Position numbers and translations under genes: made by a program. A stretch of DNA of 64,000 nucleotides from the sequence record OZ035728.1. One strand, given 5' to 3'. Position 1 is the stretch's first letter; every line of letters starts with the position of its first letter. The DNA comes from Phapecoctavirus 536P1. Positions 28,212 through 51,922 of this stretch are shown here, piece by piece. The notes under the pieces were generated by a model. The model made no database searches and was not told the DNA's origin. It saw nothing but the letters and a program-made list of their open reading frames with translations.

Positions 28212-29186
28212 TTAAACAGCAGCTTCTTCTTTTTCAGGGAAGATAAAGCTTGCAATAACACCAAGAGCTAATGTGCCTAGAACAATCATCAGACTTACGT
28301 TAGGGGAAATATCATGCGGGAGGAATGACCACTTGGCATGAAGTGTTTCACCGAACGGGTGATACATAAGTTTAGCACCAACAAACACCAGAACCACAGC
28401 AACAGCTTTCTCTAAGTGAACCAGATATTTCACAGCTACACTTAACACAAAGAAAAGTGCACGTAAACCAAGAACAGCCATCAGCATTGCAGAATAAACT
28501 AGCAGAGGTTCTTGTGTCACACCAATAACAGCCGGAACTGAATCAAAAGAGAACACAATATCTGTAAGCTCAATAACAAACACACAAAGAAGAGCAGGAG
28601 TTGCATATTTAATACCATTCTTAATGGTAATGAACTTTTCACCATCCAGTGCGTTGTGCACAGGCAGAACTTTACCTACTAAACGAACAGCCCAATGTTT
28701 AGAGTAATCAATATCTTCTTCTTCGTCACCACCTTTGATAATAGCAACGGCAGACCAAGCTACAATCAGACCGAACAACACTTGGACCGACCAATGCAGG
28801 TTAAACAAAGCTGTCCCTGCTGCAACAAAAACACCTCGGAAGACAATGGCACCTGCAATACCCCAAAGTAAAATCTTATGTTGGAGATGTGTGCTCTTAA
28901 TTCCAAAGCTTGCAAAAATTGCCATGAACACCATTAGGTTATCTACAGAAAGACTCTTTTCCAACACATATCCACTTAGGAAAAGTGCGGCAAACTCTTT
29001 ACCATGCTCTACCCAAATGAATGCGTAATATCCTAAAGCTAAAGCAATCCAAAAAACAGACCAAAGCAAAGCAGATTTAATTCCAATTTCTTTATTCTCT
29101 TTATGACCAAAGAAATCGATACCAATAGACAATGCCAAAATACCAACTAAAACAACTACATCAATAATTGGGAAACCGAGTTGCAT
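28212..29186 (-). CDS. terC: TerC-family integral membrane protein
   Basis: 324 aa, multiple TM segments; duplicated TerC motifs VLEKSLSVDNLMVF and IELTDIVFSFDSVPAV. Confidence 0.8.
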   Translation of the reverse strand: MQLGFPIIDVVVLVGILALSIGIDFFGHKENKEIGIKSALLWSVFWIALALGYYAFIWVEHGKEFAALFLSGYVLEKSLSVDNLMVFMAIFASFGIKSTHLQHKILLWGIAGAIVFRGVFVAAGTALFNLHWSVQVLFGLIVAWSAVAIIKGGDEEEDIDYSKHWAVRLVGKVLPVHNALDGEKFITIKNGIKYATPALLCVFVIELTDIVFSFDSVPAVIGVTQEPLLVYSAMLMAVLGLRALFFVLSVAVKYLVHLEKAVAVVLVFVGAKLMYHPFGETLHAKWSFLPHDISPNVSLMIVLGTLALGVIASFIFPEKEEAAV

Positions 29187-29213
29187 TCTTTTCTCCTCTC
29201 TTTGCGGGGAACT

Positions 29214-29262
29214 ATTCCCCGCTTCATGTGATATATCTTACTCTTTTTAAGAACTATGTCAA
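29214..29262 (-). promoter_or_regulatory. promoter-hairpin cassette upstream of terC (same architecture as the 51-60 kb array)
   Basis: minus strand reads TTGACA-N16-TAAGAT, then GCGGGGAA-TAG-TTCCCCGC stem-loop, then AAAGAGAGGAG leader and terC ATG. Confidence 0.6.
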
Positions 29263-29265
29263 CAC

Positions 29266-29487
29266 TTATTTTGTTGAATGAGAGGAAAAGATTCCTCGTA
29301 ATACCGCCAGAATAAACGAAACACAAACCACGGTCCAGAAGGTTACTGGGACAGTGATATCTGCATGACCCATAACTTCAGCAACATAGTTGTAAGCCAG
29401 CAACAGTAACCAAGCTGGAATCAAACTAAGCATAAAAGCAATAACAAAAAAGCTTACCACTGCAACAATACCTGCAAAAACACCCAT
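29266..29487 (-). CDS. small membrane protein
   Basis: 73 aa, two hydrophobic helices; SD AGAGGAG. Confidence 0.55.
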   Translation of the reverse strand: MGVFAGIVAVVSFFVIAFMLSLIPAWLLLLAYNYVAEVMGHADITVPVTFWTVVCVSFILAVLRGIFSSHSTK

Positions 29488-29499
29488 ACTAATCTCCTC

Positions 29500-29973
29500 T
29501 TAAAGTTTATAAATAGTCACATCGTGACCTGTTTTTACTAAAGTTTCTTCAATCATCACTTGGATGATAGCCCAATTACCTCCAGCATATCCAGCGCCAA
29601 TCATAGGTAAGCCGATCTTACATTTTTGGTCACGGAGAAGCAAATCATTAGCCATAGCTATTAGTGCATCGTAAAGTGCATCATAGTCCAACTGACGACC
29701 TTTAGCATTGTATCCGTAACGGTATTGTCCGTATAGATTATATACCAAAGGGTCTGATTGTTCGTCTGGCACCCCTAAACTAAAAGAACCTAACTTACTT
29801 TGATCACCAGCCATTGTGTCTAAATCTGCCGCATATGCATAAGGGAATGCTCGTTTAATTTGCGGAGCAATTCCTGCTCCCATATTACACATACAATTGC
29901 AACAATGAGCAATAACAGTTACTTCTCCTGCTTTAGCGGCATCAATAAGATTACCTGTTTTCATTTTAAGCAT
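29500..29973 (-). CDS. macro domain protein (ADP-ribose binding/processing)
   Basis: start at internal ATG with SD AAGGAG (track ORF extends to 30078); VIAHCCNCMCNMGAGIA and LPMIGAGYAGG macro-like blocks. Confidence 0.55.
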   Translation of the reverse strand: MLKMKTGNLIDAAKAGEVTVIAHCCNCMCNMGAGIAPQIKRAFPYAYAADLDTMAGDQSKLGSFSLGVPDEQSDPLVYNLYGQYRYGYNAKGRQLDYDALYDALIAMANDLLLRDQKCKIGLPMIGAGYAGGNWAIIQVMIEETLVKTGHDVTIYKL

Positions 29974-29986
29974 TTTTAGCTCCTTA

Positions 29987-30814
29987 TTACAGAATATGTT
30001 GTTTTGTGTAACGATCCAAGAATTCAAAGTTTTCAGCATACTTTGAAATTCGGTTGTAACCTTCTCCCAAACATCCAAAGAAAAGTTGCTCTACATAGTA
30101 GTGTGGCAATTGGCTAAGAATGATTTTGAAGTCTTCGTGATTTTGGCCCATAAGATACTTAATAGGACGAACAAGGCACTGTGCATCACGTTCTTCATTA
30201 ATCATTTTAACAAACGCTTCTGGTGTATTAATGTAGTTAAAATTCAGTTTAGCTTCGGTATCTGCTTGATTACCTTCGTATTTTGCAAAATACAAGAAGT
30301 AAACATCATTTTTAACTTGATTTTCATCAAGGATCTCAATCAGTTTGTCTTCATGCGTTCCAGTGATATTTACATCATCAATGAATACAAGCTTCTTATC
30401 ACCCCAGAATTCTTTGTTGCAGTAGAATGTATCACCATCAATAAGTTTCTTACGACTAGCTTTATCCAAGAAACCATAATCGTTGATATAGCTAACTTTA
30501 CGATGAATAATGTCCAGTTCTGCTGAACGACCTTGATCATATTGTGATTGCAACATATTAAAATAATTAATAAAATGATCTGTCATCATTGTTGCAGCAT
30601 TATGCACATGGTTATAAGGAGAAGGAATGATAACAAATTGTTCCCCAATATGTTTCATTGCCACTTGAGCAAAAAACTGAAGTGCCAATTCTTTACCCAT
30701 ACGACGCGCAGCCTGGTTACTACCAAATTTCAATTTTGAATAATCTTGGATATCAAAAGTAGCAGTTTCCAAGTCATCAAATTTATTTGCAAAAATTTGA
30801 GTTTGATTACGCAT
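29987..30814 (-). CDS. type I phosphoribosyltransferase-family protein
   Basis: 275 aa; PRPP-binding-like KKLVFIDDVNITGTH; SD GAGGAG. Confidence 0.55.
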   Translation of the reverse strand: MRNQTQIFANKFDDLETATFDIQDYSKLKFGSNQAARRMGKELALQFFAQVAMKHIGEQFVIIPSPYNHVHNAATMMTDHFINYFNMLQSQYDQGRSAELDIIHRKVSYINDYGFLDKASRKKLIDGDTFYCNKEFWGDKKLVFIDDVNITGTHEDKLIEILDENQVKNDVYFLYFAKYEGNQADTEAKLNFNYINTPEAFVKMINEERDAQCLVRPIKYLMGQNHEDFKIILSQLPHYYVEQLFFGCLGEGYNRISKYAENFEFLDRYTKQHIL

Positions 30815-31463
30815 TTACAATTTCTCCTCTTTTAAGTTTCTCTAGTAAGTCGTTAGGGTTCTTAATATGACAAAAGTTAAATCCTAAGTCAACACATTTT
30901 CCATCATATTCTTCACTATCGCCTACGTGCAACACTTCGTGCCCTAATAGAGGGATCGGAGAATACGTGAGCGTGCGAGCAAAGAATCGCGGGTCTGGTT
31001 TACAAAGTAAAGCTTCATCCGAGAAATGGGTGAACTCAAAACAATTCCAACTATCAAACTTACAAGCACGACGCAGGATATCCCCTGATATGAAGTTGGT
31101 GTTGCTCTTAATACTCAAATCATAACGCCCCGAAAGATACAGCAAGTACATCGGCAGATCTACGGCTACGTGTGGTGGAAACTTAAGGAACCACTGTTCA
31201 CACTCGAAACGAAGCTTTGCAGACTTCCAAGGCGTTATCCCAAGTTCAGAACCAAGTCTTTCCCAGGCGTATGCTGCACACTCGGCTTTGCCTTGAAGTG
31301 CTGCATTATCCAGTTCCTTTTTGATCTTTTTATAAGCTGCTCTTGCTTCCACTTCCGTAATATCTCCATATTTTGCGATAGTCCAGGCTCGCATGTCTGC
31401 GTAATTGGAGTTTGCTGTGATCAGTGTGTTCCATACATCAAAAGAGATATGTTTAATAGTCAT
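30807..31463 (-). CDS. HAD-superfamily hydrolase/phosphatase-like protein
   Basis: 218 aa; motif I-like ISFDVWNTLI and motif IV-like HVGDSEEYD. Confidence 0.5.
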   Translation of the reverse strand: MTIKHISFDVWNTLITANSNYADMRAWTIAKYGDITEVEARAAYKKIKKELDNAALQGKAECAAYAWERLGSELGITPWKSAKLRFECEQWFLKFPPHVAVDLPMYLLYLSGRYDLSIKSNTNFISGDILRRACKFDSWNCFEFTHFSDEALLCKPDPRFFARTLTYSPIPLLGHEVLHVGDSEEYDGKCVDLGFNFCHIKNPNDLLEKLKRGEIVNA

Positions 31464-46355: not shown

Positions 46356-46712
46356 ATGAAAAAATTAATCTTAGCCACATTGCTGGCTACCGTAAGCTTC
46401 ACCACTTACGCTCAAAAATTTGTAGCAGTTAAAACGAATATTGGTAAAGATGTTGTGATCACAGGCAACAAGTTTTACTATACACTTGGGAATGGTGTTC
46501 TAGAAGAGTGCAAAGATGTTGAGGCATATACAGGAAAAGAAGATAACACGGAACGTCCTTTTTATTCGATTATAGCTACTTGCAAAAATGAAATAGTAGC
46601 TATTAAACAATACAAAGATGCACCTGGAGGAGAGTACTTATTAATCAAGAATATTAAGAGTGAAAAAACTGCAAAGTTTACAGTAATTATTTTAAAAGGA
46701 GAAACGTTCTAA
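46356..46712 (+). CDS. secreted protein
   Basis: start at ATG after SD AGGAGG; signal peptide MKKLILATLLATVSFTTYA. Confidence 0.6.
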   Translation: MKKLILATLLATVSFTTYAQKFVAVKTNIGKDVVITGNKFYYTLGNGVLEECKDVEAYTGKEDNTERPFYSIIATCKNEIVAIKQYKDAPGGEYLLIKNIKSEKTAKFTVIILKGETF

Positions 46713-47851
46713 TGAAATACACTATTTTTGGAGATGTGGCTGTTGTAAATAAGGAATATGGTGTTGAAGCTAATAAACTTCCTGCTGGAGTTTGGGTTGT
46801 CAACTGCGATCCGCACGGTAACTACTCTTTAGTGCGTGGCGAAAGTTTCTCTCTTCCAAACACTCTTTATGGGGAAACTAAAGACCGCGCCGCACATGTT
46901 ATTAAAACATTTGCTCGTCGTAGCAAAGAAGGTAAAAATACTGGAGTGTTACTGACAGGGACAAAGGGCAGTGGTAAGACGATGTTAGCTAAACTGATTA
47001 GCATGTCCCTAATGTCCACAGAAGGTTTAGGTATTCCAACCATTTTGGTGACACAGCCTTACACAGATGCTGGATTCTTAGAATTTATGAGTAAAATTAC
47101 AGATCGTGCTGTTGTTTTATTTGACGAGTTTGATAAAGTGTACGCTAAGAAAGAAGATCAGGAAGCACTGTTGACCTTGTTGGATGGAACAGGAAGTGGA
47201 AATAAACTTTACATCCTCACTAAAAATAGCGGCTATATCTCGGAATATTTTGTAAACCGTCCTAGTCGTATCTATTACAGTTTCAATTACGATAAACTGT
47301 CTAGTGAAACTATGTTAGATTACTTGGATAAGAACTTGGTAAATAAAAAACACGTAGATAACTTCCAACGTTTATGGGATGTTAGCACAGAGTTGTCTTT
47401 CGATGTTATTCAAGGCATTGTAGAAGAATTGAATTTCTATCCAAAAATGACTTTTAAAGAATGCCTTGAAATGATGGGTATTTCTTTAGGCAATGATGCT
47501 AAATGGAATGTGGCTTCTATCGTAGCTAATGGCAAAACTCTGAAGGTGAATTGGATCAATAACTGGCACGACTTCACCCCTACTAAGTTTTTGTCGGGTG
47601 CTTGTTCCTTGAACATCTATCTGCAAAGCTTGAAAGATGATGAAGTTGAAGCAATGGAAACCAACAGTTATGTTATCCTGGATGAAGATGGTGATCCACA
47701 TATTGATCTATGTGCAACGACGGATGGTCTAACTTGTGATCTGATTGAAGGTGGTAAGATTCTGGTTATGAGCACCACACCAGGAAACACTCTGCGAGTG
47801 GTGCTGGAGCCTGTAACACAACGTTCCACCACACTAGGTAGCGTGTTCTAA
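46712..47851 (+). CDS. AAA+ family ATPase
   Basis: 379 aa; Walker A GTKGSGKT, Walker B VVLFDEFDK. Confidence 0.7.
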   Translation: MKYTIFGDVAVVNKEYGVEANKLPAGVWVVNCDPHGNYSLVRGESFSLPNTLYGETKDRAAHVIKTFARRSKEGKNTGVLLTGTKGSGKTMLAKLISMSLMSTEGLGIPTILVTQPYTDAGFLEFMSKITDRAVVLFDEFDKVYAKKEDQEALLTLLDGTGSGNKLYILTKNSGYISEYFVNRPSRIYYSFNYDKLSSETMLDYLDKNLVNKKHVDNFQRLWDVSTELSFDVIQGIVEELNFYPKMTFKECLEMMGISLGNDAKWNVASIVANGKTLKVNWINNWHDFTPTKFLSGACSLNIYLQSLKDDEVEAMETNSYVILDEDGDPHIDLCATTDGLTCDLIEGGKILVMSTTPGNTLRVVLEPVTQRSTTLGSVF

Positions 47852-47866
47852 TAAGGCTCCCTTATT

Positions 47867-47890
47867 AAACCCGCTTCGGCGGGTTTTGTT
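47867..47890 (+). terminator. intrinsic terminator
   Basis: AAACCCGC-TTCG-GCGGGTTT hairpin followed by TGTT after ATPase gene. Confidence 0.65.
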
Positions 47891-47928
47891 ATATTGATTT
47901 CAGTTTAATAGGAAGAGAATTGTTAGAT

Positions 47929-48921
47929 ATGCCAGTAAAGAAGAGTATTGAAACATATATGGAAGAATGTAAGCCGATAGCTGAGGCTAAAGGGATTACC
48001 ATTCTCGGCACGTATGGAGAAGATAAAGGTGTGCATACGAAGATGATCAATCGTTGTGAACATGGTCATGAATGGAACACTACAACCTTTAATAAATTTA
48101 AGTCTGGTCGTGGTTGCCCTGTTTGTAGGTATGAGAGAGCAGGACAAGCTAAAACTATTCCAGATGATCAGCACATACAAGATTTTATGAATACAGGCAA
48201 GTTTAAACCTGGGACTATCTTCACTAATACAGGAAAACGAGCTAAAGGAGGGCGCAATATTTTATGGTGTGTAGAGTGTCCTGTTTGTAGTGTTGATGAA
48301 TATGTTCAAGCGGGTGTCTGCAATGGTAAATTTTACTCTACAGGGAGTAGCCTTAAAAAAGGGCAAACCCCTTGCCGTTGTGCAACTAACTATCACCACA
48401 CAGAAGAACAGATCACCTACAGAACAAAGAAGGAAGTAGAGAGTAAAGGATACATTTGGATAGGATGGATCGGGAAACCTTTTGCACATGGTAAGTTTAA
48501 ATATGGATGTAAGGAGCACGGAGAGCAGATAGGACGTGCAAGGGATTTATTACACCAGGGTAGTGGTTGTCCTGGTTGCGCTGGCAAGAATCAACAACAG
48601 GCATACATTAACAACGTCTATGATGAACAAGGTGTTCTTTGTGCATTGAAGTTTGGCATTGCCAATAATAGCGATCAGCGTATTAAGATCCAGAACTACA
48701 ACAATGTGTTTACGATGAAACAAACCCAAGTGTGGCGCTTCCCTACTGTGAAGCAATGCAAAGATGCAGAAAAGCGTTGTAAGCGTGTCCTTCACACGGA
48801 AGCAGTGAGCAAATATTCTATGCCAGATGGCTACACAGAGACAGTGGAGTTATCTTGCATGGCATCAATACAAAATATTTATAAACTTTATGGTGGAACA
48901 TTACAGGAGGAAACATGTTAG
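47929..48921 (+). CDS. zinc-ribbon repeat protein (possible nucleic-acid-binding / endonuclease-like)
   Basis: 330 aa; three spaced CxxC-type clusters (GCPVC, ECPVC, GCPGC), each preceded by His-rich segment. Confidence 0.5.
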   Translation: MPVKKSIETYMEECKPIAEAKGITILGTYGEDKGVHTKMINRCEHGHEWNTTTFNKFKSGRGCPVCRYERAGQAKTIPDDQHIQDFMNTGKFKPGTIFTNTGKRAKGGRNILWCVECPVCSVDEYVQAGVCNGKFYSTGSSLKKGQTPCRCATNYHHTEEQITYRTKKEVESKGYIWIGWIGKPFAHGKFKYGCKEHGEQIGRARDLLHQGSGCPGCAGKNQQQAYINNVYDEQGVLCALKFGIANNSDQRIKIQNYNNVFTMKQTQVWRFPTVKQCKDAEKRCKRVLHTEAVSKYSMPDGYTETVELSCMASIQNIYKLYGGTLQEETC

Positions 48922-49280
48922 TTGACGTTCAAATTATGCGCAACGAAAGAATGGACTTCTTTGAAGCAGTAGAGAAACATCTGATCCGATGGGACTATGA
49001 ATTTGTTCCTGCTGGATGTGGACCAGTAGAGCATTTAGCGGAAGACGACGATGTATACATGATCATTCGTCAAGCGTACCAGACAGACCAGTGTGAAGAA
49101 ACTCCCGAACTGATTTTGTTTGAGTGTAAAGATCTTGCAAAATATTTTGACTATGGTGGAAAAGAGGGTCATAATCTCTCCAGATACAATAAACGTCTAC
49201 TTATCTTAGACTACATGCGGAACAACAAACACAAACTCATCGACGCAGACGCAGTTTATGGCTACTGGTGGATGGACTAA
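48915..49280 (+). CDS. hypothetical acidic protein
   Basis: 121 aa; SD AGGAGG. Confidence 0.55.
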   Translation: MLVDVQIMRNERMDFFEAVEKHLIRWDYEFVPAGCGPVEHLAEDDDVYMIIRQAYQTDQCEETPELILFECKDLAKYFDYGGKEGHNLSRYNKRLLILDYMRNNKHKLIDADAVYGYWWMD

Positions 49281-49293
49281 CAAAGGAGAAACT

Positions 49294-49473
49294 ATGGCAC
49301 GTTTAGCAGACCATGAAATCTTTAAACCTATTCTGAACCACTATGATGAACTTAAGGCAGTGTTGGATTGTTATAGAGAGGATGAAGAACGTTTGGAAGT
49401 GAATCTTAAGATAGTTCTGATGAAAGCTTTTCAAGACGGGCAAGCTGAAGTCTTAGGAGGCATGAAAAAATGA
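49294..49473 (+). CDS. hypothetical small protein
   Basis: 59 aa from ATG after SD AAGGAG. Confidence 0.45.
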   Translation: MARLADHEIFKPILNHYDELKAVLDCYREDEERLEVNLKIVLMKAFQDGQAEVLGGMKK

Positions 49474-50012
49474 GAATAACTGATGAATATGTATTCTTCT
49501 TTTCACATAAAGATGTGTTTAGTAATTGGTATATTGCACCCTTTACAGAAACCGAACCAGGTTACAATCAGACATTTAATTGTGTCGAACAATACATGAT
49601 GTGGCGTAAAGCTTTGCTTTTTAATGACCACAACACGGCACAGGCTATTCTGACTCATAGTTTGATACGAAAAGATGAGAAGATCCAAGCTTATTACAAA
49701 CGTATGGGTAGGGCAGTGTCGGATTTTGATAACAACGTATGGGAAGAGAACCGTGAGCGTATTGTTATGCGAGGTTTATGTTTGAAATATGTACAGAATC
49801 CAGATTTGTATGCAGACTTACACCTTTACCAATACAAAACGTTTGTTGAAGCAAGCCCTTACGATAAGGTTTACGGAATTGGAATGGGGATGTATGAACC
49901 AGGGGTGCTAAACCCTGCTACCTGGAAAGGGCAGAATCTTTTAGGCAAATATCATAATAAACTGATCGAAATACTTTTCCCAGACAAAATACCGCAAAGA
50001 CGATATTTGTGA
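49470..50012 (+). CDS. NADAR-domain protein (YbiA-like N-glycosidase family)
   Basis: 180 aa; FFFSHKDVFSNWY and EQYMMWRKALLF blocks parallel E. coli YbiA FYS...FSNF and EHYFQAxKF; SD AGGAGG. Confidence 0.65.
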   Translation: MRITDEYVFFFSHKDVFSNWYIAPFTETEPGYNQTFNCVEQYMMWRKALLFNDHNTAQAILTHSLIRKDEKIQAYYKRMGRAVSDFDNNVWEENRERIVMRGLCLKYVQNPDLYADLHLYQYKTFVEASPYDKVYGIGMGMYEPGVLNPATWKGQNLLGKYHNKLIEILFPDKIPQRRYL

Positions 50013-50066
50013 TATTTTAACTTTTTTCATTTTTAGAACAAAGGTGTCACTTTGTAGCACAGAAAT

Positions 50067-50103
50067 AAGGCTCCTACAGCACCGTAGAGAGCCTATTATT
50101 TTG
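50067..50103 (+). terminator. probable intrinsic terminator after NADAR gene
   Basis: imperfect GGCTCCTAC...GTAGAGAGCC hairpin followed by TATTATTTTG. Confidence 0.45.
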
Positions 50104-50255
50104 TCCTATACAAACACTTGTCTTTTTCAGTTGGCATTGCTAGGATTCGATCTGGGTGGGTTCCTGAAGGTCTACCAATAAGATTAAAGGTTATCTCAAA
50201 TTCCCACTACCTGTTATCTCAAAAATCCCTCAAATTATTTAAACTTTTTAAGAAT

Positions 50256-50302
50256 TTACAAAAGTGAAAGTTGAAAACCAAAATTTAAAGTTTAGGAAAA
50301 TT
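50256..50302. repeat. 47-bp A-rich direct repeat, copy 1
   Basis: TTACAAAAGTGAAAGTTGAAAACCAAAATTTAAAGTTTAGGAAAATT; about 42/47 identical to copy 2. Confidence 0.6.
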
Positions 50303-50393
50303 ATCTTAAAATGTTAGATACAAAACAAAACTCAAAAGTCAAGGAAAATTTTAAAAATTTTGCGCGCCCACAGTATTTAAAGTTTTTTTGCTT

Positions 50394-50440
50394 TTACAAA
50401 AATGAAAGTACAAAAGCAAAATTTAAAGTTTACAAAAATT
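50394..50440. repeat. 47-bp A-rich direct repeat, copy 2
   Basis: TTACAAAAATGAAAGTACAAAAGCAAAATTTAAAGTTTACAAAAATT. Confidence 0.6.
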
Positions 50441-50455
50441 TTTATGCAGGTGAGA

Positions 50456-50472
50456 ATGAGAAGAGTTCTCAT
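50456..50472. promoter_or_regulatory. perfect palindrome ATGAGAAGAGTTCTCAT (operator-like)
   Basis: 7-bp arms around GAG; shares TTCTCAT half-site with Fur-box-like sites. Confidence 0.4.
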
Positions 50473-50480
50473 GTGGAAAT

Positions 50481-50503
50481 GCAAATGATAATGATTCGCA
50501 TTT
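50481..50503. promoter_or_regulatory. Fur-box-like site (weaker)
   Basis: AAATGATAATGATTCGCATTT; shares TGATAAT core with Fur consensus GATAATGATAATCATTATC. Confidence 0.3.
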
Positions 50504-50540
50504 AAGTTTATAAATGAGATTGATTCTTATTCAATAAGGT

Positions 50541-50569
50541 AAATGATAATCATTCTCATTTAGAGAATG
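50541..50569. promoter_or_regulatory. Fur-box-like palindromic operator
   Basis: TGATAATCATTCTC matches Fur consensus core TGATAATCATTATC at 13/14; continues into palindrome TCATTCTCATTTAGAGAATGA. Confidence 0.45.
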
Positions 50570-50819
50570 ACGCGCAGGGGTGGTGTTTATCTCGCGCTCC
50601 CGTGTCCCCTCGCCATGTAATAAGAATAACAGATCCAGCCAGGAAAGCAAGCGATTATTTTTATCTTTACATTTCTTTACAAATTTATTTTAGACGAGCT
50701 ACCGGCGATCAACCTTCCAACCAGCGCCCTGGTATGTTAGCCCCGCCTTTACGCCGTGGGGTGGCGCTTCCTCTTCTGTATGTAAAACAGTATAAGCCCG
50801 ATCCCTGGGCTTGTCAAGA

Positions 50820-51086
50820 TTATTTTTTGTTTTCTTGCCAGGATAGGACACCTAACCAAAAATGCATATCGCCCCGCGCCCCTGGTGGGATCTTGCTTTC
50901 CCCGCCGCCACTGCAAGCCCATAAATAACCATCAGCGAACGGATCAAAGTTTTCTATTTCTTCCACCTTATGATCGCCCAGGTTGAGAACTGTTTCAGCC
51001 TTTAAGCCCGTTGCGCTTGCTACCTGGTGCACCGTGCCGCCTTGCCAGCCCAATGAGTGCATAAGGTGTAATGTAGTATTTGTCAT
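50820..51086 (-). CDS. hypothetical protein in GC-rich island
   Basis: 88-aa ORF with GC-rich codon usage unlike surrounding genes; weak SD. Confidence 0.35.
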   Translation of the reverse strand: MTNTTLHLMHSLGWQGGTVHQVASATGLKAETVLNLGDHKVEEIENFDPFADGYLWACSGGGESKIPPGARGDMHFWLGVLSWQENKK

Positions 51087-51195
51087 GGTGTCGCCCTTTC
51101 TTTGTTGTGCGCCCTGGTTGGCGCGGTAGAAAGATGATAGCCTTTTCCTTTATATATAGCAAGCAAAAAGAAAATAAAAAAGATTGAAAAAGTGG

Positions 51196-51224
51196 TTGAC
51201 GTTCCTCACCTGGTAGCGTAGTAT
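51196..51224 (+). promoter_or_regulatory. sigma70-like promoter (TTGACG-N17-TAGTAT) heading the cassette array
   Basis: hexamers about 135 nt upstream of ATG 51360. Confidence 0.45.
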
Positions 51225-51359
51225 TCATCTTGTCGAGGGGGGCGAGGCACAACGACAATAAACAACAGGAGGGCGCAATGTAGGACGGGCAAAGGTGAGG
51301 ATCTCCATAATCCACCGTCAACCAACAAAAAACATCATTCATCACCTGGAGTTAAAATC

Positions 51360-51557
51360 ATGGCAACATTGCACATTGTGGCGAAAGCTGGACAAATCAA
51401 CGTAATAGTAAACGGTTTTACTGAGTTCAGTCATCCCCAGGATGATCATGAAACGGTTTTATCTTTCATTGATTCCCTGTTAGAAATGGGAGTCATTACA
51501 GAAGACCAGCACGCTACAAAATGCAAGCGCGTTAATCAAATTGCAGGAATAGAATAA
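51360..51557 (+). CDS. hypothetical small protein
   Basis: 65 aa; first ORF of array. Confidence 0.55.
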   Translation: MATLHIVAKAGQINVIVNGFTEFSHPQDDHETVLSFIDSLLEMGVITEDQHATKCKRVNQIAGIE

Positions 51558-51563
51558 AAACTA

Positions 51564-51626
51564 TTGACAACAAACAACAACCTGATAAGATGTGTCACAT
51601 AGGGCGGCGGAATGGTCCAGCCGCTC
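51564..51626 (+). promoter_or_regulatory. promoter-hairpin cassette A
   Basis: TTGACA-N16-TGaTAAGAT then GGGCGGCGGAATGGTCCAGCCGCTC stem-loop starting about 3 nt after predicted +1. Confidence 0.6.
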
Positions 51627-51649
51627 ACAACAGAAGAGAGATTATAATC

Positions 51650-51922
51650 ATGGCATCATATAGCGCAACAATGATCGTAGCTGGCACCACTGGTAAACCT
51701 ATGAGCGGTGGCGGATCTTTCGCAAATATCAACATTGACGGGCGTTTATCCCTGGACGCAGCGATCACCGTGGCGCGGGAAACATTTAAGAAAGAATGTA
51801 AATTCAATAAACAAGATTATCTCGGTTTTGCTATTGAAAAAACCGCGCGCTTTGTTGATTATAAAAGCCCGAAAATGGTTGATACTACACTAAAAGCGCA
51901 AGATGTAGCGTTTTTGCTTTAA
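51650..51922 (+). CDS. hypothetical small protein
   Basis: 90 aa from ATG after purine-rich leader AGAAGAGAG. Confidence 0.6.
   Translation: MASYSATMIVAGTTGKPMSGGGSFANINIDGRLSLDAAITVARETFKKECKFNKQDYLGFAIEKTARFVDYKSPKMVDTTLKAQDVAFLL

Follow-up and report, generated by a model that had tools for sequence, protein, structure and literature searches.

The 64,000-nucleotide window analyzed here (the whole stretch of Phapecoctavirus 536P1 DNA in sequence record OZ035728.1) carries at positions 49470-50012 of the + strand a gene for a NADAR-domain protein, which is probably an active ADP-ribosylglycohydrolase whose selected role is to free phage DNA of DarT1-type guanine ADP-ribosylation during infection. 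By sequence similarity and gene order, the gene is the positional ortholog of bas60_0111 of phage Bas60, taken here as the validated anti-DarT1 factor AdfN^Bas60. Our computations establish the family, the fold, the intact catalytic residues, the purifying selection, and the relation to the Bas60 NADAR by orthology and synteny; that the protein is catalytically active, what its natural substrate and substrate range are, and how it affects infection are inferred.

Orthology with the NADAR protein of phage Bas60

The window protein was aligned with bas60_0111 (QXV83846.1; phage Bas60, also named PaulScherrer) at 59% identity over 172 amino acids (E = 1e-69). The two proteins are of similar size (180 amino acids in the window versus 183) and align without large indels; they differ in a 6-residue Bas60 loop after residue 34, which is missing from the window protein, and in their C-terminal tails. 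The gene order ATPase, CapR/endonuclease, NADAR is common to the window and Bas60, with 64% identity between the ATPases (bas60_0109) and 56% between the CapR/endonuclease proteins (bas60_0110), whereas Phapecoctavirus has two additional small open reading frames (ORFs; 48915-49280 and 49258-49473) between the endonuclease and NADAR genes.

The Bas60 gene is annotated as “putative YbiA-like N-glycosidase” and is the only match to the window NADAR protein within the Bas60 record. Phages Bas60-62 are phi92-like (Maffei et al., PMC8594841), and GenBank taxonomy places them in the genus Justusliebigvirus, a sister genus of Phapecoctavirus within the subfamily Stephanstirmvirinae. Together, these two sources rule out the assignment of Bas60-62 to Vequintavirus, which would have followed from the term “Vequintavirinae” in Johannesman et al. 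(2025, Nat Commun, PMC11825919). The phi92-like nature of Bas60-62, the bas60_ locus tag and the single NADAR match in the record are our basis for equating bas60_0111 with AdfN^Bas60.

According to Johannesman et al., AdfN^Bas60 neutralized DarT1 in uninfected E. coli. AdfN^Bas32 as well as AdfN^Bas60, phage NADARs described as unrelated, neutralized DarT1 unaided and allowed RB69, T5 and Bas25 to form plaques again on DarTG1 hosts, and they did not counter DarTG2; AdfN^Bas60 was grouped with bacterial NADARs that are neither YbiA nor DarG1 (PMC11825919). Glycohydrolase activity of AdfN^Bas60 is implied by its rescue from DarT1. The initial annotation had proposed that a phage NADAR protein could counter DarT-type defense toxins. 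Since the Bas60 NADAR matches the window protein in gene order and at 59% identity, this idea now draws support from orthology and not just from family membership, but its wording was too broad: the NADARs tested so far cleave guanine-linked ADP-ribose (guanine-ADPr or G-ADPr, the DarT1 product) and not thymidine-ADPr (the DarT2 product; PMC11825919, PMC11125620), so that “DarT-type” should read “DarT1-type”.

Family assignment and fold

The initial annotation had also placed a NADAR-domain protein with a YbiA/NADAR fold signature at 49470-50012, and this was borne out by sequence and structure comparisons. The Pfam profile PF08719 (DUF1768) matched residues 11-161 with an E-value of 7.8e-36 and a score of 124.2 bits (gathering cutoff: 35.1 bits), the match spanning profile positions 3-154 of 163; with NADAR as the sole Pfam domain at E-values up to 1, the 180-amino-acid product is a single-domain protein. 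It scored 113.1 bits against TIGR02464 (“riboflavin biosynthesis intermediates N-glycosidase”, ribofla_fusion), above the curated cutoff of 73.7. It was assigned to phrog_1017 (“unknown function”) in PHROGs with an E-value of 5e-52, and both the window and Bas60 proteins matched the stand-alone NADAR candidate model PDC-M42C in PADLOC.

The sole credible solved relative found by sequence was the Phytophthora NADAR-ADP-ribose complex 8BAU (E = 4e-15). An AlphaFold2 model of the window protein, computed with 56 homologs, had a mean predicted local distance difference test (pLDDT) score of 95.1 and a predicted TM (pTM) score of 0.89. When the PDB was searched with Foldseek, the only structures to match it significantly were 8BAU (TMq 0.78, E = 1e-9) and YbiA of E. 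coli (2B3W; TMq 0.69, E = 2e-6), and the model together with these matches displays the alpha+beta fold of NADAR proteins, in which small beta hairpins flank a helical core. These profile and structure matches are far above chance.

Active site and substrate range

Residues that bind ADP-ribose or act in catalysis in the Phytophthora protein (PnNADAR) have been listed as E43, K50, K75, R79, E125, D130 and W133 (Schuller et al. 2023, PMC11543638). Through the alignment with 8BAU (from P. nicotianae, the closest solved structure), we mapped these to E40, K47, K77, R81, E127, D132 and Y135 of the window protein, so that the residues in contact with ADP-ribose are conserved at six of the seven positions. 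At the remaining one, W is conservatively replaced by Y (Y135), in the window protein as in bas60_0111. All seven mapped residues, including the Glu at the second catalytic position, are identical in AdfN^Bas60. The 56-homolog alignment has no variation at E40, K47, E127 and D132, and conservation is at least 90% at K77 and R81. The E-x6-K motif formed by E40/K47 corresponds to E36/K43 of T4 gp30.3, the site that was mutated in AdfN^T4 (E36A, K43A; PMC11825919); MAFFT had misaligned YbiA and T4 gp30.3 at this motif, which we therefore read straight from both sequences.

The same residues bear on a reading in which the protein is a non-catalytic, ADP-ribose-binding inhibitor or decoy of some other NAD+-dependent defense, such as a retron NADase effector. 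A non-enzymatic phage NADAR acting against Retron-Eco1 is cited as a precedent, in one sentence of PMC11825919 (for Carabias et al. 2024), and the AdfN proteins are said there to differ from it in requiring enzymatic activity. We consider this reading highly unlikely: the catalytic residues are intact and invariant across the homologs, which points to selection for catalysis, and the ortholog acts against DarT1 (PMC11825919).

The second catalytic position is occupied by Glu127, within VEASPYD in the window protein versus VEHTEND in YbiA. Glu is the YbiA or general-NADAR state, whereas DarG1 has Asp (D171 in E. coli C7; PMC11543638, PMC11825919) and T4-type phage NADARs have His. With Glu at this position, a broader substrate range of the window protein is possible. 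Glu127 thus lends some weight to a reading in which the protein is an ADP-ribosylglycohydrolase whose main substrates are other than DarT1 lesions, namely cytidine-ADPr (C-ADPr) or G-ADPr on RNA or DNA, as made by pierisin/ScARP-like enzymes or RNA-targeting ADP-ribosyltransferases (ARTs), or soluble ADPr-derived immune signals; activity against other ADP-ribosylating defenses is also proposed by Johannesman et al. (PMC11825919). Against it stands the finding in the same source that the 59%-identical syntenic ortholog alone neutralizes DarT1 and DarTG1 defense in vivo, and the NADAR/DarT literature covered cites no anti-phage E. coli ART that is cytidine-directed, or RNA-directed and reversible by NADARs. 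We regard this reading as rather unlikely; it overlaps with the DarT1-directed explanation as a broader specificity and is compatible with a DarT1 role.

Glu127 also enters into a reading that we judge to be very unlikely, in which the protein is a housekeeping enzyme like YbiA, an N-glycosidase cleaving reactive intermediates of the riboflavin pathway. Its case consists of the TIGR02464 score (113 bits versus 73.7), the YbiA-type catalytic Glu, the match of the model to the YbiA structure (TMq 0.69), and database records that name the gene “GTP cyclohydrolase II” or “putative YbiA-like N-glycosidase”. The Glu, although it occupies the position that defines the YbiA subfamily, is a general NADAR trait and does not discriminate. 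Identity to YbiA and 8BAU is low (24-31% for the two together, 26-31% for E. coli YbiA), Pfam revealed neither a RibA/RibD fusion in the protein nor a riboflavin-pathway gene among the flanking ORFs, the “GTP cyclohydrolase II” label seems to be fusion-derived, and the protein has no cyclohydrolase domain. The gene for YbiA itself is chromosomal, lying in the dinG/rhlE/ybiB region under LexA control, and YbiA has been tied to the cleavage of riboflavin intermediates. In published work, YbiA fails to rescue cells from DarT1 in vivo (PMC11125620) whereas AdfN^Bas60 succeeds, and AdfN^Bas60 is placed outside the YbiA group (PMC11825919).

Proposed removal of DarT1 lesions from phage DNA

In the explanation that we favor, the phage would infect an E. 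coli cell with a DarTG1-type toxin-antitoxin defense, and the released DarT1 toxin would place ADP-ribose on guanines of the replicating phage DNA and block replication. The window enzyme would then grip the ADP-ribose, its diphosphate through K47, K77 and R81 and its distal ribose between E40, E127 and D132, and would hydrolyze the N-glycosidic bond between ribose and guanine, leaving unmodified DNA on which replication could resume. Its target would be the lesion, in a catalytic reaction, and not the toxin by binding; for this reason, it should counter any guanine-directed DNA ADP-ribosyltransferase.

The reaction itself is known from the family. NADARs hydrolyze DarT1-made guanine-linked ADP-ribose (Schuller et al. 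2023, PMC11543638), and G-ADPr hydrolysis in vitro has been reported for all E. coli NADAR classes and for T4 gp30.3 (Cihlova et al. 2024, PMC11125620). T4 gp30.3 (AdfN^T4) shields T-even phages from DarTG1 and removes ADP-ribose in vitro (PMC11825919). Like the window protein, AdfN^T4 is a stand-alone phage NADAR with an E-x6-K motif and the same proposed role, removal of DarT1-made guanine-ADPr from phage DNA; unlike it, AdfN^T4 has His in place of Glu127, and the two proteins are 15-18% identical. AdfN^T4 further needs the context of a T-even infection and fails to rescue cells that are not infected, whereas the Bas60 type requires no such help, and independent acquisition of AdfN^T4 and the Bas60-type NADAR has been proposed (both PMC11825919). 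The T4-type NADAR does not remove C-ADPr.

The DarG1 antitoxins (E. coli C7; G. lovleyi, 8BAT) have the same fold and catalyze the reaction that we propose for the window protein, hydrolysis of guanine-N2-ADP-ribose, and DarG1 has been described as a type-IV-like, non-binding antidote (PMC11825919). Apart from the Asp noted above, DarG1 differs in having an N-terminal extension, which the window protein lacks (its NADAR domain begins at residue 11), and in adjoining DarT1, whereas no ART domain was found with Pfam in the ten ORFs flanking the window NADAR gene. Because of this negative scan, we classify the gene as a predicted orphan ADP-ribosylglycohydrolase of the AdfN^Bas60 type and not as part of a toxin-antitoxin pair.

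The same scan, confined to the flanking ORFs, bears on the idea that the protein acts as antidote to an ART with which it forms a phage-borne pair, or reverses the phage’s own ADP-ribosylation. NADARs do have the antitoxin role in two known pairs, DarT1-NADAR and YarT-YbiA (PMC11543638 among the sources), but no ART is annotated at the ESCO5, phAPEC8 or Bas60 loci either, and of the explanations weighed here we find this one the least likely.

Several points weigh against a DarT1-directed role. An identity of 59% to bas60_0111 leaves room for altered specificity. The anti-DarT1 evidence for AdfN^Bas60 comes from ectopic expression, and the sections consulted report neither a Bas60 deletion mutant nor a native-phage phenotype (PMC11825919). 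YbiA and T4 gp30.3 did not rescue uninfected cells from DarT1 (PMC11125620); in-vitro activity is thus common to the NADAR classes while in-vivo rescue is not, and activity does not guarantee counter-defense. By sequence, the window protein is without the Asp-type catalytic residue and the N-terminal extension of the DarT1-associated antitoxin NADARs, and it passes the curated TIGR02464 cutoff.

Gene neighborhood and transcription unit

The NADAR gene starts at an ATG that is preceded, at a distance of 9 nucleotides, by a Shine-Dalgarno sequence (AGGAGG, 49455-49460, + strand; read from the sequence). This start codon shares nucleotides with the stop codon of the small ORF before it (ATGA, 49470-49473), and this start/stop overlap suggests translational coupling of the two genes. 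The preceding ORF (49258-49473, +; 71 amino acids in the ORF list, about 59 in relatives) matches phrog_22330 (E = 1e-44) and corresponds to a 180-nucleotide coding sequence in ESCO5; Bas60 has no counterpart of it between its endonuclease and NADAR genes. Upstream of it lies a 121-amino-acid ORF (48915-49280, +) in a Phapecoctavirus-specific arrangement, with a match to phrog_24465 (E = 3e-86) and none in Pfam, which is absent from the Bas60 locus.

Next comes a gene for a CapR-domain, treble-clef zinc-finger “endonuclease” (47920-48921, +; Pfam CapR, E = 1.5e-22; phrog_681, endonuclease), which is the upstream NADAR neighbor in both genera. This protein contains CapR-homology and treble-clef zinc-finger repeats and varies in length (333 amino acids in the window, 402 in ESCO5, 394 in phAPEC8 and 467 in Bas60), and an internal repeat is visible in the comparison with Bas60. 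The AAA-type ATPase gene that serves as the further synteny anchor (46712-47851, +; Pfam AAA; phrog_2376) is followed directly by a strong intrinsic-terminator-like hairpin found by a terminator scan (47867-47886, +; AAACCCGC-TTCG-GCGGGTTT, then a T-rich tail). The NADAR gene thus has the AAA ATPase, the CapR/endonuclease and small ORFs as neighbors, and the reading of the NADAR locus as a toxin-antitoxin system was rejected for want of an ART domain in the ten flanking ORFs scanned with Pfam.

Beyond the NADAR gene, a terminator-like hairpin (GGCUCCUAC...GUAGAGAGCC) followed by UAUUAUUUUG occupies 50068-50104 (+), with the hairpin itself at 50068-50094, 56 nucleotides past the stop. The segment 50010-50110 folds with a free energy of -26.4 kcal/mol (z = -4.3). 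The hairpin is nearly invariant in 4 Phapecoctavirus genomes and is called as a terminator by ARNold in phAPEC8, although a simple terminator scan missed it. It likely forms the 3' end of a transcription unit, and it is reasonable to take NADAR as the last gene of that unit. Of the initial description of the gene as standing at the end of an early operon, the “end” is therefore upheld by this hairpin; “early” is unproven. The hairpin at 47867-47886 splits the + strand gene string between the ATPase and CapR genes, so that NADAR may sit in a shorter, 4-gene unit. Promoters in the region were represented by consensus-level matches only, and ARAGORN identified no tRNA in the window.

Distribution, selection and database labels

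The 1.4 kb around the NADAR gene are 95-98% identical to many phAPEC8-, ESCO5- and tuntematon-like Phapecoctavirus (Stephanstirmvirinae) coliphage genomes. The protein is 100% identical to that of phage tuntematon (MN850618), and 70 phage records contain the gene at a protein identity of at least 80%. The ratio of nonsynonymous to synonymous substitution rates (dN/dS) among the Phapecoctavirus copies is 0.03-0.15, and the gene is under strong purifying selection within the genus; dS is saturated between Phapecoctavirus and Justusliebigvirus, which precludes a dN/dS value for that pair of genera.

In public records, the gene is labeled “hypothetical protein” or “GTP cyclohydrolase II” (ESCO5 and other records). 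We reject the latter label, since the RibA catalytic domain is absent and NADAR is the only Pfam match in the protein. It seems to have been carried over from proteins in which RibA/RibD and NADAR are fused, because JGI names relatives “ribA/ribD-fused uncharacterized protein”. In phage dw-ec, the NADAR copy (L008, 1501-2043) has a stop three codons early, which gives 177 instead of 180 amino acids, and the gene is unannotated in that record. Near-identical phAPEC8-like and phi92-like genomes carry the names of Klebsiella, Acinetobacter, Campylobacter, Pseudomonas, Serratia and Salmonella phages; these names reflect either a truly broad host range or mislabeled or contaminated isolates.

A second candidate ADP-ribose-processing protein

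The initial annotation had pointed to a macrodomain protein at 29500 and to the possibility of two ADP-ribose-processing activities in this phage. The macrodomain gene is real: it is a stand-alone gene of the DarG/TARG1/SCO6735 class on the - strand (29500-29973), unlinked to NADAR, encoding 157 amino acids from an internal ATG. The TTG start given in the ORF list, at 30078, overlaps the upstream gene, which favors translation from the ATG at 29973. The Pfam Macro score is borderline (22.7 bits versus a cutoff of 22) and calls for other evidence, which came from PDB, PHROGs and PADLOC. PDB matches were to SCO6735 (5E3B, 5e-13), TARG1 (2e-6) and the T. aquaticus DarG macrodomain (5M31, 2e-6); the protein matched phrog_335 at 7e-55, and the PADLOC DarG model matched at 1.3e-9 over profile positions 3-144 of 329, which is its macro half only.

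The macrodomain protein is also 37% identical to T4 Tk.4 over 124 amino acids (pairwise E = 1e-21). Tk.4 has been named AdfM, an anti-DarTG2 factor, through a transposon screen and a clean knockout (HIDEN-SEQ preprint, 10.1101/2025.11.20.689424). SCO6735, TARG1 and DarG2 are listed as removing DarT2-made thymidine-ADPr. The two phage proteins are alike in being stand-alone, DarG-macrodomain-like proteins of about 155 amino acids; they differ in that the window gene adjoins genes for a ComF-like phosphoribosyltransferase (PRTase) and TerC. On this comparison, the presence of two ADP-ribose-processing activities gains support, a NADAR and a DarG-class macrodomain paralleling the T4 pair of AdfN and AdfM.

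The macrodomain gene belongs to a - strand cluster (28212-31463) with genes for a TerC-family membrane protein (28212-29186), the ComF-like PRTase (PF15610; 29987-30814) and a 218-amino-acid product (30807-31463). The pairing of PRTase and TerC has reportedly been described by Aravind’s group in “Ter” gene sets for nucleoside-like metabolites. Should this apply here, the substrate of the macrodomain might be a ribosyl metabolite instead of DNA adducts.

A dual kit against DarT1 and DarT2, made up of the NADAR protein and the macrodomain protein, is plausible from these similarities. More tentatively, and with somewhat more doubt than confidence, we suggest that such a kit is independent of that of T4, with a helper-free, Glu-type NADAR possibly acting on both G-ADPr and C-ADPr on DNA and RNA, and a DarG-like macrodomain acting on thymidine-ADPr.

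Region downstream of the NADAR gene

No convincing + strand ORF was found in the roughly 1.3 kb after the terminator (50100-51360). This region contains an AT-rich block (25-32% GC) with a 72-nucleotide direct repeat at 50231 and 50369, three or four AATGAnAnnGATTCnnATT units at a spacing of 29 nucleotides (50455-50562), and a 21-nucleotide inverted repeat (50511-50531 and 50542-50562); a block of 46-52% GC follows. An Rfam search of 49900-51700 gave chance-level matches only. As the region is 93% identical in 4 Phapecoctavirus genomes with indels of 1-2 nucleotides, it is probably non-coding, and we regard it as a conserved element that is a candidate iteron-like origin or a candidate regulatory or non-coding RNA element. 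An insertion of about 86 nucleotides (at about 51237-51335), just upstream of the ORF at 51360, is absent from ESCO5, phAPEC8 and Schickermooser.

Implications

That orphan phage NADARs act against DarT1 was published in 2025, with the sister-genus ortholog among the proteins tested, and the present analysis adds little to the concept. What it adds is the reach of the AdfN^Bas60 type across Stephanstirmvirinae in a position that is conserved, the strong purifying selection acting on it, and its occurrence together with an AdfM-like macrodomain. It suggests a function for a gene that is called “hypothetical” or, wrongly, “GTP cyclohydrolase II” in some 70 phAPEC8-like genome records. Phapecoctaviruses are frequent candidates for the treatment of avian-pathogenic and multidrug-resistant E. 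coli. If the dual kit exists as proposed, it would make the phages resistant to both DarTG1 and DarTG2, and perhaps also to other toxins that ADP-ribosylate nucleic acids. The probable anti-DarTG1, and perhaps anti-DarTG2, factors described here may help to predict the host range of these phages on strains that carry those defenses.

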